A stretch of 64,000 nucleotides of DNA from Escherichia phage teqdroes. This document shows, piece by piece, positions 45,352 to 53,997 of this stretch. A model generated the notes under the pieces. That model saw only the letters and a list, made by a program, of their open reading frames with translations. It did not search any database and was not told the origin of the DNA. The DNA is taken from the sequence record NC_054932.1; one strand, 5' to 3'. Every line of letters begins with the position of its first letter. Position 1 is the first letter of the stretch. A program made the translations under genes and the position numbers.

Positions 45352-45612
45352 ATGACTAAAGATGATTTCCTGAATGCGGTAGAAAAAGCTAGTGAGAAAT
45401 TTGAAGTGATGGGTGTACGGGTCCACAAAGACAGAAATTACGGGCTCGATATTCAAACGTATTCGTTATGGCTTGTGGGTGAACACAGTCTTGTAACCAG
45501 TTTAGTTATGGGTGTCGATACCTATCCTCTATTGGTTAAGTTCAGAAGTATGGAAAAGGCTACTAAAGAAATGATTAAGCTTGGTAAGTGGCTCGATAAA
45601 ATTCAAAAATAA
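45352..45612 (+). CDS. hypothetical protein (86 aa)
   Basis: ATG 1 nt after the upstream stop. Confidence 0.45.
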   Translation: MTKDDFLNAVEKASEKFEVMGVRVHKDRNYGLDIQTYSLWLVGEHSLVTSLVMGVDTYPLLVKFRSMEKATKEMIKLGKWLDKIQK

Positions 45613-45922: not shown

Positions 45923-46255
45923 ATGTCTGATATTCATGTAACTGGAATTTCCCAAGTAAACATTCGCTGCCAATTTAAAACTGTACCCGGGGTGACTCAT
46001 ATTAATTTATCACACGACCCATATTCTCGTGGAAGACAGTTAACTGGTGTAATTAAGTTTTTCGGAGGAATTGGTGGTAATGAATTTACTATAGGCGATG
46101 AAGAAATTGTTGGCTGTAAATTAAAAGTTCAGAAGGGCGTGTTAGAACTTTTTAATCCTGAAGCTTTTGATGAAATCTCACGAGCAGTTAACAAAGGAAT
46201 GTTAACGTTAATTAAAATGATTAAAGCTAGCGGATACGTTCCTGATCCTTTTTAA
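45923..46255 (+). CDS. hypothetical protein (110 aa)
   Basis: ORF with GAGGAAAA SD. Confidence 0.5.
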   Translation: MSDIHVTGISQVNIRCQFKTVPGVTHINLSHDPYSRGRQLTGVIKFFGGIGGNEFTIGDEEIVGCKLKVQKGVLELFNPEAFDEISRAVNKGMLTLIKMIKASGYVPDPF

Positions 46256-46266
46256 TTGGAGATGAT

Positions 46267-47093
<827 letters not shown>

Positions 47094-47113
47094 AATAACG
47101 CGTGGCGGAAAAT

Positions 47114-47461
47114 ATGAATTTTAATTATTACCCTATTCTATTAGAAAAAGACGCGAAACAGCCAAAGTGGCAGGGTCCTCAGTTTATTAAAGGTGTCTAT
47201 CAATTAGTAGTTCCTAAAGACAAGATTTATAGCAGTTGTTTCACTGAATCCGCTTGCAGTATTTTCGGTAATAGTTCTCCGTATTGGAATTTTGACATAA
47301 AGCTGGATAGAAATATCGATATTTGGTTGAAAGCTATGGATATTGGTAATATCACGTTTGATGAGAATAATTATCATATTATTGGTCGCTTTTCCAAACG
47401 CGGTAAAGAATTATATTTCACGCCTGAAATTGAGAGAAAATTTGATGCTAAACCGTATTAA
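47114..47461 (+). CDS. hypothetical protein (115 aa) between frd and td
   Basis: ORF from ATG 47114 (the track start at 47102 is GTG); no recognisable motif. Confidence 0.4.
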   Translation: MNFNYYPILLEKDAKQPKWQGPQFIKGVYQLVVPKDKIYSSCFTESACSIFGNSSPYWNFDIKLDRNIDIWLKAMDIGNITFDENNYHIIGRFSKRGKELYFTPEIERKFDAKPY

Positions 47462-47505
47462 TTATTAGCTTCATAAAATGTATTATAATTTATATAAGGT
47501 ACTAA

Positions 47506-48366
47506 ATGAAACAATACCAAGATTTAATTAAAGACATTTTTGAAAATGGTTATGAAACCGATGACCGAACAGGCACAGGAACAATTGCTTTGTTCGGTAC
47601 TAAATTGCGTTGGGATTTAACTAAAGGTTTTCCTGCAGTAACAACTAAGAAGCTTGCGTGGAATGCATGCATTGCTGAGCTTCTATGGTTTATTTCCGGT
47701 TCTACCAATGTTAATGATTTACGTCTTCGCACTCATGGTAGTCTTATTCAAGGCAAAACTATTTGGGACGATAACTATGAAAACCAGGCTAAAGACCTAG
47801 GATATCATAGTGGTGAACTTGGTCCTATATACGGTAAACAATGGCGTGATTTCGGTGGTGTGGATCAATTAGTTGAAACTATTGATCGTATTAAAAAATT
47901 ACCAACTGATCGACGTCAAATCGTTTCAGCATGGAATCCAGCTGAAATCAATCAAATGGCATTACCGCCCTGTCATATGTTCTATCAGTTTAATGTGCGT
48001 AATGGTTATCTTGATTTACAATGGTACCAAAGAAGTGTAGATGTTTTCTTGGGATTGCCATTCAACATTGCCTCGTACGCTGCCTTGACGCATATTGTGG
48101 CTAAGATGTGTAATCTTATCCCAGGAGATTTGATATTTTCTGGTGGTAATACTCACATCTATATGAATCATACTGAGCAATGTAAAGAAATTTTACGTCG
48201 TGAGCCTAAAGAACTATGTGAACTTAAAATTGATTGGCCTATAGAGTTTGGAAATTGTGACACCGAAACACAGCTTTACTGGTTAACTGAATACATGAAA
48301 CCGAAAGATTTTATCCTTGAAAATTATGAATCGCATCCAGCAATTAAAGGGAAAATGGCAATATGA
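47506..48366 (+). CDS. td: thymidylate synthase, uninterrupted
   Basis: 286 aa continuous ORF with the catalytic motif PPCH; no intron interruption. Confidence 0.95.
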
Positions 48367-48626
48367 TTTTACGATTTAAAGATACTTCTGGCGTTGTTCT
48401 TTTTACACTTCCTAACCCAAGCGAGTTAGAAGTTCCAGGACCAGAACAGCCTATTACCATTTATGGTAAAAAATACTATACTCATAAAATGACTCGTGAG
48501 TATTTTGATAATAAAATTTCTACAGTTAAAACTTCTTCTGATTGTTATTATGATATTACTGTTTTAACGGAAAAACAATATGACGAATTATTCCAGCGTG
48601 GGCCGTCTATGCCGGGTAGTGAATAA
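48363..48626 (+). CDS. hypothetical protein (87 aa)
   Basis: ORF with ATGA overlap to the td stop. Confidence 0.45.
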
Positions 48627-48906
48627 ATACAAATCCGACTTTGATGTTAATATTCACCGCGGTACATTTTGGGGAAATTACGTCGGTAAAGATGCTGGCA
48701 GCCGGGAGGCTGCCATTGAATTATTCAAAAAAGATTTTATACGTCGAATTAAATCCGGAGAAATAACTAAAGCACATTTAGAGCCTTTACGTGGAATGAG
48801 GCTAGGATGCACATGTAAACCAAAGCCGTGTCATGGTGATATAATAGCTCATATAGTTAACCGAGTGTTTAAAGACGATTTTCAAGTTGAGGACTTATGC
48901 AATTAA
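48580..48906 (+). CDS. hypothetical protein (108 aa)
   Basis: ORF overlapping the upstream ORF by 47 nt; start uncertain. Confidence 0.4.
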
Positions 48907-51161
48907 TTAATGTTATCAAAAGTAGTGGTGTTTCTCAGAGCTTCGACCCACAAAAAATTATTAAAGTTTTATCTTGGGCAGCTGAAGGAACATCAGTAGA
49001 TCCTTATGAATTATATGAAAATATTAAATCTTATCTCCGTGATGGAATGACAACTGATGATATTCAGACTATTGTCATTAAGGCTGCTGCGAATTCTATT
49101 TCGGTTGAAGAGCCTGATTATCAATATGTAGCTGCACGCTGTTTAATGTTTGCTCTTCGTAAGCATGTTTACGGGCAGTATGAACCGCGTTCATTTATTG
49201 ACCATATTTCTTATTGCGTAAATGAAGGGAAATATGACCCTGAACTGCTGTCAAAATATTCAGCAGAAGAAATTACATTTTTAGAATCAAAAATTAAGCA
49301 CGAGCGGGATATGGAATTTACTTATTCCGGAGCGATGCAATTAAAAGAAAAATATCTAGTCAAAGATAAAACCACCGGTCAAATTTATGAAACTCCGCAG
49401 TTTGCATTTATGACTATTGGAATGGCATTGCATCAAGATGAACCTGTTGATAGACTAAAACACGTTATTCGTTTTTATGAAGCGGTATCTACTCGACAGA
49501 TTTCATTACCAACTCCTATTATGGCTGGCTGTCGTACTCCGACTCGACAGTTTAGTTCATGTGTTGTTATTGAGGCAGGTGATTCGCTGAAGTCTATCAA
49601 TAAGGCTTCCGCTTCAATTGTTGAATATATCTCCAAACGCGCTGGAATTGGTATTAACGTTGGTATGATTCGTGCCGAAGGTTCTAAGATTGGTACAGGT
49701 GAAGTACGTCATACTGGTGTTATTCCTTTTTGGAAACATTTTCAGACTGCTGTTAAATCATGCTCACAGGGTGGAATTCGTGGCGGCGCTGCTACTGCTT
49801 ATTATCCTATTTGGCATTTGGAAGTTGAAAATCTTCTCGTTTTGAAAAATAACAAAGGCGTAGAAGAAAACCGAATTCGTCATATGGATTATGGTGTTCA
49901 GCTGAATGATTTGATGATGGAACGATTCGGAAAGAACGATTACATTACTTTGTTCAGTCCACATGAAATGGGTGGTGAGCTTTATTATTCTTATTTTAAA
50001 GACCAAGACCGTTTCCGTGAATTATATGAAGCCGCAGAAAAAGACCCTAATATTCGTAAAAAGCGTATTAAAGCCCGTGAACTGTTTGAATTGCTAATGA
50101 CTGAACGCTCAGGAACAGCAAGGATTTATGTACAGTTCATTGATAATACGAATAACTATACTCCATTTATTCGTGAAAAGGCACCTATTCGTCAGAGCAA
50201 CTTGTGTTGTGAAATTGCTATTCCAACAAATGACGTGAATAGTCCTGATGCTGAAATTGGATTGTGTACGTTATCTGCATTTGTGTTAGATAACTTTGAT
50301 TGGCAAGACCAAGATAAAATTAATGAATTGGCAGAAGTTCAAGTTCGTGCTCTTGATAATCTTTTGGACTACCAAGGATATCCAGTTCCTGAAGCAGAAA
50401 AAGCTAAAAAGCGTCGAAACCTCGGCGTAGGTGTTACTAACTATGCAGCTTGGCTGGCAAGTAATTTTGCTTCTTATGAAGATGCTAACGATTTAACACA
50501 TGAACTATTTGAGAGATTGCAGTATGGACTCATTAAAGCATCCATTAAGCTCGCCAAAGAAAAAGGACCTTGCGAATATTATTCAGACACTCGTTGGTCT
50601 CGAGGCGAATTACCTATCGACTGGTACAATAAAAAGATTGACCAAATCGCAGCTCCAAAATACGTTTGTGACTGGTCGTCGCTGCGGGAAGACCTTAAGC
50701 TCTTTGGCATCCGTAATAGCACATTATCAGCACTTATGCCATGTGAGTCATCTTCCCAAGTTTCTAACAGTACAAACGGTATCGAGCCTCCACGTGGACC
50801 AGTCTCTGTTAAAGAATCAAAAGAGGGTTCCTTTAATCAAGTCGTGCCCAATATTGAGCATAACATAGACCTCTATGATTATACGTGGAAATTAGCTAAG
50901 AAAGGTAATAAACCTTATCTTACGCAGGTAGCTATTATGCTGAAATGGGTATGTCAATCAGCTTCAGCGAATACATATTATGACCCGCAGATTTTTCCAA
51001 AAGGAAAGGTTCCAATGTCAATAATGATTGATGACCTTTTGTATTTTTGGTATTTTGGCGGAAAAAATTTCTATTATCATAATACCCGCGATGGTTCTGG
51101 TACTGATGATTATGAAATAGAAACTCCAAAAGCTGAAGATTGTTCATCCTGTAAATTATGA
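48897..51161 (+). CDS. nrdA: ribonucleotide reductase class Ia large subunit
   Basis: 754 aa, ATP-cone N-terminus; matches T4 NrdA. Confidence 0.95.
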   Translation: MQLINVIKSSGVSQSFDPQKIIKVLSWAAEGTSVDPYELYENIKSYLRDGMTTDDIQTIVIKAAANSISVEEPDYQYVAARCLMFALRKHVYGQYEPRSFIDHISYCVNEGKYDPELLSKYSAEEITFLESKIKHERDMEFTYSGAMQLKEKYLVKDKTTGQIYETPQFAFMTIGMALHQDEPVDRLKHVIRFYEAVSTRQISLPTPIMAGCRTPTRQFSSCVVIEAGDSLKSINKASASIVEYISKRAGIGINVGMIRAEGSKIGTGEVRHTGVIPFWKHFQTAVKSCSQGGIRGGAATAYYPIWHLEVENLLVLKNNKGVEENRIRHMDYGVQLNDLMMERFGKNDYITLFSPHEMGGELYYSYFKDQDRFRELYEAAEKDPNIRKKRIKARELFELLMTERSGTARIYVQFIDNTNNYTPFIREKAPIRQSNLCCEIAIPTNDVNSPDAEIGLCTLSAFVLDNFDWQDQDKINELAEVQVRALDNLLDYQGYPVPEAEKAKKRRNLGVGVTNYAAWLASNFASYEDANDLTHELFERLQYGLIKASIKLAKEKGPCEYYSDTRWSRGELPIDWYNKKIDQIAAPKYVCDWSSLREDLKLFGIRNSTLSALMPCESSSQVSNSTNGIEPPRGPVSVKESKEGSFNQVVPNIEHNIDLYDYTWKLAKKGNKPYLTQVAIMLKWVCQSASANTYYDPQIFPKGKVPMSIMIDDLLYFWYFGGKNFYYHNTRDGSGTDDYEIETPKAEDCSSCKL

Positions 51162-51212
51162 TATAATTTGACTCACGGACGAGTCACTATCTATTAACTA
51201 AGCGGAAAATTT

Positions 51213-52382
51213 ATGAGCACAGTTTTTAATACAAATCCAGTTGATGTTTTAAAAGAACCTATGTTCTTCGGTTCAGGTCTTGGTATTGCGCGTTATGATA
51301 TTCAACGCCATAAAGTTTTTGAAGATTTAACCGAAAAGCAATTATCATTTTTCTGGCGTCCTGAAGAAGTAAACTTGATGATGGATGCTGCACAATTTAA
51401 CAAGCTTCCTCAGTATCAGCAAGATATTTTTACTAATAACCTGAAGTATCAATCACTTCTAGATAGCATTCAGGGTCGTGCACCGTCTGCTGTACTTATG
51501 TCATTAATTTCAGATCCAAGCCTTGATACATGGGTTGCTACATGGACTTTTAGCGAAACTATTCACAGTCGTTCATATACTCATATCATGCGAAATCTTT
51601 ATACTGATCCATCAAAGGTATTTGATGAGATTGTATTAGATAAAGCTATCATGAAACGTGCTGAATCTATTGGTCGTTATTATGATGACGTTCTAGTTAA
51701 GACTCGTGAATATCAGAATGCGGTTGAAGATTATGAAGGAATTTTATCAGAAGGATTTCGTAAAGAAGAGCTAGGCAAAGTTGTTGAATGTACTAAACGA
51801 GCACTAATGAAATCTCTTTACCTCTGCCTGCACGTAATCAACGCATTGGAAGCTATTCGTTTTTATGTATCTTTCGCATGTACCTTTAACTTCCATAAGA
51901 ACATGGAAATCATGGAAGGTAATGCCAAGATTATGAAGTTCATTGCACGTGATGAGCAGCTTCACCTTAAAGGCACCCAATATATTATTCGTCAACTTCA
52001 ACTTGGCACTGATGGTGATGAATGGGTTAAAATTGCTCAAGAGTGTGAACAAGAAGCAGTTGATATTTTCATGGAAGTTAACCGTCAAGAAAAAGACTGG
52101 GCAGTTCATTTATTTAAAGATGGCGATGTTCCTGGATTAAATACAAATAGCATGTGGAGCTTTATTGATTACTTAACTGTATCTCGTATGAAACAGTGTG
52201 GTCTTCCATGCCCAATTACTGATGCTCCGGTTAAACATCCGTATCCTTGGATTCGTGAATATCTTAATTCTGATAATGTTCAATCTGCACCGCAAGAAGT
52301 AGAACTGTCATCTTATCTTGTAGCACAGATTGATAATGACGTTGATGATAAAGTTATGATGAGTTTTAAAAAATATTTTTAA
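51213..52382 (+). CDS. nrdB: ribonucleotide reductase class Ia small subunit, uninterrupted
   Basis: 389-aa continuous ORF with di-iron ligand motifs; no intron. Confidence 0.9.
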   Translation: MSTVFNTNPVDVLKEPMFFGSGLGIARYDIQRHKVFEDLTEKQLSFFWRPEEVNLMMDAAQFNKLPQYQQDIFTNNLKYQSLLDSIQGRAPSAVLMSLISDPSLDTWVATWTFSETIHSRSYTHIMRNLYTDPSKVFDEIVLDKAIMKRAESIGRYYDDVLVKTREYQNAVEDYEGILSEGFRKEELGKVVECTKRALMKSLYLCLHVINALEAIRFYVSFACTFNFHKNMEIMEGNAKIMKFIARDEQLHLKGTQYIIRQLQLGTDGDEWVKIAQECEQEAVDIFMEVNRQEKDWAVHLFKDGDVPGLNTNSMWSFIDYLTVSRMKQCGLPCPITDAPVKHPYPWIREYLNSDNVQSAPQEVELSSYLVAQIDNDVDDKVMMSFKKYF

Positions 52383-52409
52383 GGAGTGGGCCGCAAGGCC
52401 CATTTTATT

Positions 52410-53997
<1,588 letters not shown>

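Follow-up and report, generated by a model that had tools for sequence, protein, structure and literature searches.

Sequence comparison identifies the reading frame between frd and td of Escherichia phage teqdroes as td.1, an accessory gene of T4-like phages

Introduction

In phage T4, the genes for dihydrofolate reductase (frd) and thymidylate synthase (td) meet in an ATGA overlap. In the 64,000-nt stretch of Escherichia phage teqdroes analysed here (NC_054932.1; hereafter the window), frd ends at 47093, td starts at 47506, and a 115-aa open reading frame (ORF) lies between them at 47114–47461. This raises the question of what the ORF is and of how the two junctions came to differ. A first-pass annotation of the same DNA noticed the ORF, cited the T4 overlap and pointed to the continuous td (286 aa) and nrdB (389 aa) genes; it proposed either the gain of a cassette in this lineage or a degenerate remnant of a homing endonuclease or intron. 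The ORF, its position and the T4 overlap (NC_000866) were confirmed, as was the continuity of td and nrdB, both of which have two exons in T4, with I-TevI and a defective I-TevIII, respectively. T4 itself lacks the ORF. The observation is correct; the interpretation is partly supported and mostly wrong, as set out below.

Gene arrangement at the frd–td junction

The window comes from a Tequatrovirus (T2/T4/T6-type phage); over 24 kb, its best database matches have 97–98% identity. On its plus strand, frd (193 aa) occupies 46512–47093 according to the ORF list and to the frd annotation in matching records. It is followed on the same strand by td.1, a 115-aa PHROG 1928 protein whose CDS limits (47114–47461) are the same as in GenBank records, and by td (47506–48366), which is intron-free by the ORF list and by comparison with T4. 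The ORF list also gives nrdA (48897–51161), and an intron-free nrdB (51213–52382, plus strand) comes directly after it, with no mobE. The gap between nrdA and nrdB (51162–51212) measures only 51 nt and lacks both mobE and nrdB.1, whereas T4 has both; in the otherwise very similar phage FriedrichMiescher, this gap holds a gene for a 243-aa putative homing endonuclease. Between gene 32 and frd there are three further small ORFs, at 45352–45612 (86 aa), 45923–46255 (110 aa, DUF7247) and 46267–46512 (81 aa); all three are absent from T4 and present in relatives and in other genera. Over the whole gene 32–td region, T4 is a reduced version.

Here td.1 is clear of both neighbours, with spacers of 20 nt on the frd side and 44 nt on the td side. 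A putative, weak Shine–Dalgarno-like GGCGGA (47104–47109, plus strand) can be read 4 nt 5′ of the ATG at 47114, which gives the 115-aa product; an alternative GTG start at 47102 would give 119 aa. The AT-rich spacer before td (47462–47505, plus strand) contains GCTTCA (47468–47473), TATAAT (47484–47489) and the td ribosome-binding site AAGG. The first two elements could be taken as a MotA-box-like middle promoter of td. This reading was our own, its 10-nt spacing is short, and we set it aside and do not rely on it because the implied transcription start would delete the td ribosome-binding site. A promoter and terminator scan of 46300–47800 found no more sites than in shuffled sequence, and the TATAAT-containing spacer was not among the sites listed by the sigma-70 scan. 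From its position on the same strand, td.1 is probably co-transcribed with frd and td, and we infer its co-expression with the early and middle nucleotide-metabolism genes.

Identification and distribution of td.1

Database comparison identifies the ORF as a genuine, conserved and already annotated accessory gene of T4-like phages (Tevenvirinae). The name td.1 is found in the T6 record AY262134.2 (ABI48938.1), where the product is called a 'hypothetical protein'; the literature that we searched contains no mention of td.1 or of an ORF between frd and td. The 801 nt around td.1 are 100% identical in phages FriedrichMiescher and 303Ecol101PP. By tblastn, td.1 occurs in 579 phage records, of which 361, including T2, T6 and RB14, match at 90% amino-acid identity or more and 218 at less than 60%; the proteins of T2 and RB14 are 100% identical to that of the window. 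Residues 4–111 match the PHROG 1928 profile with an E value of 8.4e-36. No further copy of the family was found within the 64-kb window.

The family is compact. In an exhaustive HMMER search, 1.84 billion cluster representatives yielded only 16 related clusters, all of 99–116 aa; a 17th match, to an 838-aa protein (E 7e-4), is probably spurious. Among 5.8 billion proteins, a profile search returned only single-domain proteins of 113–148 aa on phage contigs, with no domain fusions of the family. Taken together, the relatives (more than 40) are all of 99–148 aa, single-domain and free of any Pfam domain.

Could the frame nevertheless be a non-functional one, arisen by chance or decaying in intergenic DNA? 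Its weak Shine–Dalgarno sequence, its absence from T4 and from the phages with a 68-aa ORF at the same place (described below), and two records in which it is split in two pieces would agree with such an origin. However, the amino-acid sequence is conserved at 97–100% across hundreds of isolates, and homologues with identities as low as 26% share its length and motifs. The dN/dS ratio against diverged homologues is well below 1 (about 0.13–0.43, a rough value with dS near saturation), and AlphaFold2 gives the protein a confident fold. A chance frame is scarcely credible against these observations, and the dN/dS ratio indicates that td.1 is under purifying selection and that its frame is maintained. 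The gene is evidently dispensable, since T4 and the phages with the 68-aa ORF live without it. The two split matches are from Escherichia phages Pu-Krd-SF1 and SF2 (PQ249395.1 and PQ249396.1); they carry no annotation, and either a frameshift or an error in sequencing accounts for the split.

Alleles of the junction in Tequatrovirus

Within Tequatrovirus, the slot between frd and td has three alleles: td.1, a 68-aa ORF, or nothing. Short junction forms were detected with a query joining the starts of frd and td, and the denominator is the 535–559 records with a Tequatrovirus-like frd. td.1 alone is found in 361 records, among them the window, T2, T6 and RB14. The 68-aa ORF is found in 125 records that resemble Yersinia phage fPS-65, in which it (PHROG 9550) lies at L007 2079–2285, equivalent to 47094–47505 of the window. 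The empty T4-type junction, together with a td intron, is found in at least 32 records; T4 stocks and derivatives make up about half of these. Thus, the empty junction of T4 is the minority state and td.1 the majority state.

The 68-aa allele is a 206-bp insert that overlaps its neighbours at both ends, with ATGA on the frd side and TAATG on the td side. Its ORF is unrelated to td.1. It shares 69–81% identity with the ORF lying just 5′ of td in other genera and about 43% with Phapecoctavirus ORFs.

Order of genes in related genera

We compared the junction with those of Kanagawavirus, Jiaodavirus, Roskildevirus, Gelderlandvirus, Moonvirus, Kagamiyamavirus, the unclassified Klebsiella phage Biddle and two metagenomic relatives. 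In nearly every case, a td.1 homologue comes right after frd, and the stop codon of one gene usually overlaps the start codon of the next. In the Roskildevirus phage Cronus, a 144-aa paralogue lies between frd and the homologue, which itself abuts td. The homologues are 28–63% identical in amino-acid sequence to the window protein, and those of the two metagenomic relatives reach 63–66%; the neighbouring Frd proteins are 46–55% identical, in the same range. This matching divergence fits descent of td.1 together with its flanks.

A second ORF often follows the td.1 homologue and is a paralogue of it. For example, Moon gp253 is recognized with an hhalign probability of 97.5% (E 7e-12) and Cronus gp170 with 83%, and all of the homologues and paralogues fall within PHROG 1928. 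In several relatives, the 68-aa ORF (PHROG 9550) comes next and abuts td. In this ancestral-type layout, as many as three small genes, overlapping the genes next to them, occupy the frd–td interval of the related genera. Two tandem, strongly diverged paralogues of the td.1 family are seen in other Tevenvirinae genera (L005 2059–2797, L010 1480–2134, L012 3001–3673 and others). In one subgroup, the conserved QKKW motif is followed by about 20 inserted amino acids with the consensus '..PPTIEQFKR.P..Y'.

Loss or gain of the td.1 segment

The junction carries an exact 9-bp direct repeat, TAAATGAAA, located by exact search on the plus strand. Its left copy (47087–47095) spans the frd stop codon and its right copy (47503–47511) the td start codon. 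The start-to-start distance of 416 bp is also the length of the indel that separates the window from T4, which has a single copy of TAAATGAAA at its ATGA junction. Moreover, the ATG AAA TAA at 47090–47098, just at the end of frd, resembles the remains of an overlapped start. Five of the nine positions of TAAATGAAA are free of frd and td coding constraint, which gives a chance match of about 0.005. Three other 9-mer strings are repeated in the same 521 nt (two of them overlap, so that they represent two loci); AT-rich DNA repeats 9-mers by chance, and the TAAATGAAA repeat is support, not proof. A perfect 9-nt inverted repeat, TATATAAAT/ATTTATATA, at 47083–47091 and 47488–47496 also brackets the td.1 segment and, in a sequence so rich in AT, may be due to chance.

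These features can be read in two directions. In the first, proposed here, the ancestral order would be frd, td.1, a td.1 paralogue, the 68-aa ORF and td, and each Tequatrovirus allele would be a different deletion derivative of this string. All of the boundaries in the ancestral string share the same ATGA(A) overlap and thus offer the short homologies needed for such deletions, so that deletion or recombination between the repeated start/stop junctions may have made the alleles. The T4 state would result from the loss of 416 bp between the two copies of TAAATGAAA. Deletion between short direct repeats is the way in which T4 ordinarily loses DNA.

In the second direction, the T4-like ATGA junction would be ancestral in Tequatrovirus. 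A different T4-like phage would later have supplied the td.1 segment, complete with its own ribosome-binding site and spacer, and the insertion would have duplicated TAAATGAAA. The exact repeat flanking the 416-bp segment and the leftover ATG AAA TAA after frd suit this course too, as do the different contents of the slot among Tequatrovirus genomes and the non-overlapping junctions of td.1 here, as opposed to the overlapping homologues elsewhere. However, the same position is held by td.1 homologues across the other genera examined, empty junctions are few, and td.1 is the majority. The best possible donor among 5.8 billion proteins is no more than 66% identical in amino-acid sequence, and there is no mechanism of the transposase type to account for a 9-bp duplication. 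We therefore regard the gain of a cassette in this lineage, one of the two proposals of the first-pass annotation, as unlikely; what stands of that proposal is that the junction is a variable slot. Loss in the T4 lineage would be the simpler reading, and it is preferred because td.1 is the majority allele and is syntenic after frd in other genera.

Comparison with homing endonucleases and introns

A gene that varies in presence between conserved neighbours, beside the host gene of a mobile intron, invites the other proposal: that td.1 is a free-standing homing endonuclease or the decayed remnant of an endonuclease or intron. The N-terminal 'GVYQL' indeed recalls the GIY of I-TevI. The likeness to I-TevI, however, covers 8 residues/columns with an hhalign probability of 0.5%, and for MobE the probability is 0.05%. 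We tried to read 'GVYQLVV...IYS' as a GIY-YIG pair; the family does not conserve the second motif and keeps only G(I/V)Y. In the family alignment, the YIG motif is absent and no Arg, Glu, Asn or His is invariant. For the His/Asn/His pattern of HNH enzymes, there is no invariant His, and one family member lacks His altogether. I-TevI and Seg-type enzymes have a C-terminal DNA-binding domain and a total length of about 200–250 aa; td.1 has 115 aa, and the family, at 99–148 aa, has no such DNA-binding extension.

Searches of Pfam, NCBIfam, PADLOC and PDB sequences with the window protein gave no match, nor did the family profile, including against the PDB, and Pfam matched none of the 19 family members. 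The confident model of td.1 matches no GIY-YIG, HNH, LAGLIDADG or PD-(D/E)xK fold and does not show the alpha/beta arrangement of GIY-YIG. Purifying selection and stable synteny across genera also speak against a decaying or mobile element. To our knowledge, every known homing endonuclease family needs conserved residues of the Asp/Glu/His type. Judged by its sequence and predicted structure, td.1 is not a homing endonuclease, and we consider the nuclease or intron-remnant origin very improbable.

The label 'putative homing endonuclease' nonetheless appears in BASEL phage records and in one Klebsiella phage record (ValerieMcCarty04). The BASEL methods section describes comparative annotation and mentions no homology to nucleases. 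We suspect that the label stems from the presence/absence pattern.

An Rfam search of 46000–53000 at E ≤ 1 gave no group I intron match, and the same search missed the td intron of T4. In this control, the T4 nrdB intron scored 35.7 bits, below the gathering score of 50, and the T4 td intron (L002 9548–10564) was unreported at E ≤ 1. Rfam negatives are thus weak against ORF-bearing phage introns, above all that of td. The window Td is colinear with the spliced T4 Td, with equal length and 83% amino-acid identity, and hence td is intron-free here. The first-pass annotation had tied the ORF to the missing introns. Chimeric two-piece queries were used to ask whether td.1 and the td intron exclude each other, through I-TevI co-conversion deleting td.1. 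They do not: 79 records, T6 included, carry both. The empty junction occurs with the intron in 32 records and the 68-aa allele with the intron in fPS-65. We see no clear association between td.1 and the intron in these counts, which were compared without formal statistics.

Predicted structure of td.1

The AlphaFold2 model, built from a 19-sequence alignment, has a mean pLDDT of 90.9 and a pTM of 0.84. It is beta-rich with one helix, and the protein is mildly basic (pI about 8.5). The only family-invariant residues are Trp19, Gly27, Gly91, Lys95 and Gly97, and Gln16, Tyr29 and Phe93 are near-invariant. No Asp, Glu or His is invariant in the alignment, so that there is no candidate catalytic acid or histidine.

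The model has no significant match among PDB folds. Its BFVD matches are confined to uncharacterised T4-like phage proteins, one of which is the Cronus paralogue. Among the top structural matches, none of which is significant, OB-fold proteins turn up repeatedly. OB-folds (SSB, RPA, S1, Teb1 and RuvA domain I) are likewise small, beta-rich and mildly basic, with one helix between strands, and the order of secondary-structure elements in td.1 is compatible with such a fold, all OB matches being below significance. Since there is no candidate catalytic acid or histidine, we favour a binding role over an enzymatic one. Our guess, made with low confidence from the model, is that td.1 may be a small, mildly basic, non-enzymatic binder of nucleic acid or of a partner protein; any specific molecular role deserves a low degree of belief at best.

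The td allele of the window

Frd of the window is 98% identical in amino-acid sequence to that of T4; Td is 83% identical, as distant as the Td proteins of other genera. At the nucleotide level, identity is at least 90% over the first 150 nt of td and 62–86% thereafter. By this pattern, the td allele looks mosaic. In comparison with T4, the position equivalent to the td intron insertion site is 48054/48055 (plus strand). Around it (48025–48080), six of eight codons differ synonymously from T4, and the I-TevI cleavage motif CNNNG is kept, as CAAAG in the window and CAACG in T4.

Discussion

Differential loss of ancestral genes accounts better for the variable junction than does the gain of a cassette or the decay of an endonuclease. 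We hold the gene-level and evolutionary account as a whole, a real gene and differential loss of ancestral genes, to be likely. The finding is of little import in itself, the gene being ordinary and already annotated. Some modest points are nevertheless useful. T4 is a reduced reference genome, without td.1 and the three ORFs 5′ of frd that its relatives keep. The frd–td slot is a clean three-allele case that alternative deletions at repeated ATGA junctions could explain. The 'putative homing endonuclease' label has no support in sequence or structure and should not spread. Lastly, td.1 and its paralogues combine a confident predicted fold, no solved relative and a tractable phage, and offer a cheap functional target. 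A bolder idea is that the family represents an undescribed fold of small basic binders and that the position between frd and td reflects a functional tie; we rate it as improbable. If it were true, td.1 might assist the folate/thymidylate branch of phage dNTP synthesis as an accessory factor or, alternatively, a nucleic-acid-binding or host-interaction (counter-defence) factor dispensable to T4.

Comparison with known systems

The free-standing homing endonuclease genes of T4, such as mobE and segG, are similar to td.1 in being small, located between nucleotide-metabolism genes and patchily present. They differ in several respects. First, td.1 has no GIY-YIG or HNH motif or fold and no candidate catalytic residues. 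Second, it is half their size or less. Third, in place of sporadic insertions, td.1 shows stable synteny, tandem paralogues and a divergence like that of its flanks.

The td.1 of T6 is the same gene, and 200 nt over its 3′ end and the spacer are about 99% identical to the window. RB32ORF229c of RB14/RB32 and an unannotated ORF of T2 (AY310907.2) are also the same gene, in the same position and with the same CDS limits as td.1 of the window. There is no substantive difference between the window gene and its counterparts in T6, T2 and RB14.

Finally, the gene 32–frd–td–nrd region holds other small ORFs, namely frd.1/DUF5417, frd.2, frd.3, DUF7247, nrdA.1/DUF4326 and nrdA.2/DUF5496. Like td.1, these early-region ORFs are short, lie on the same strand and are variably present, and their starts and stops often overlap. 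Unlike them, td.1 does not yet have a Pfam family, and it has tandem paralogues.
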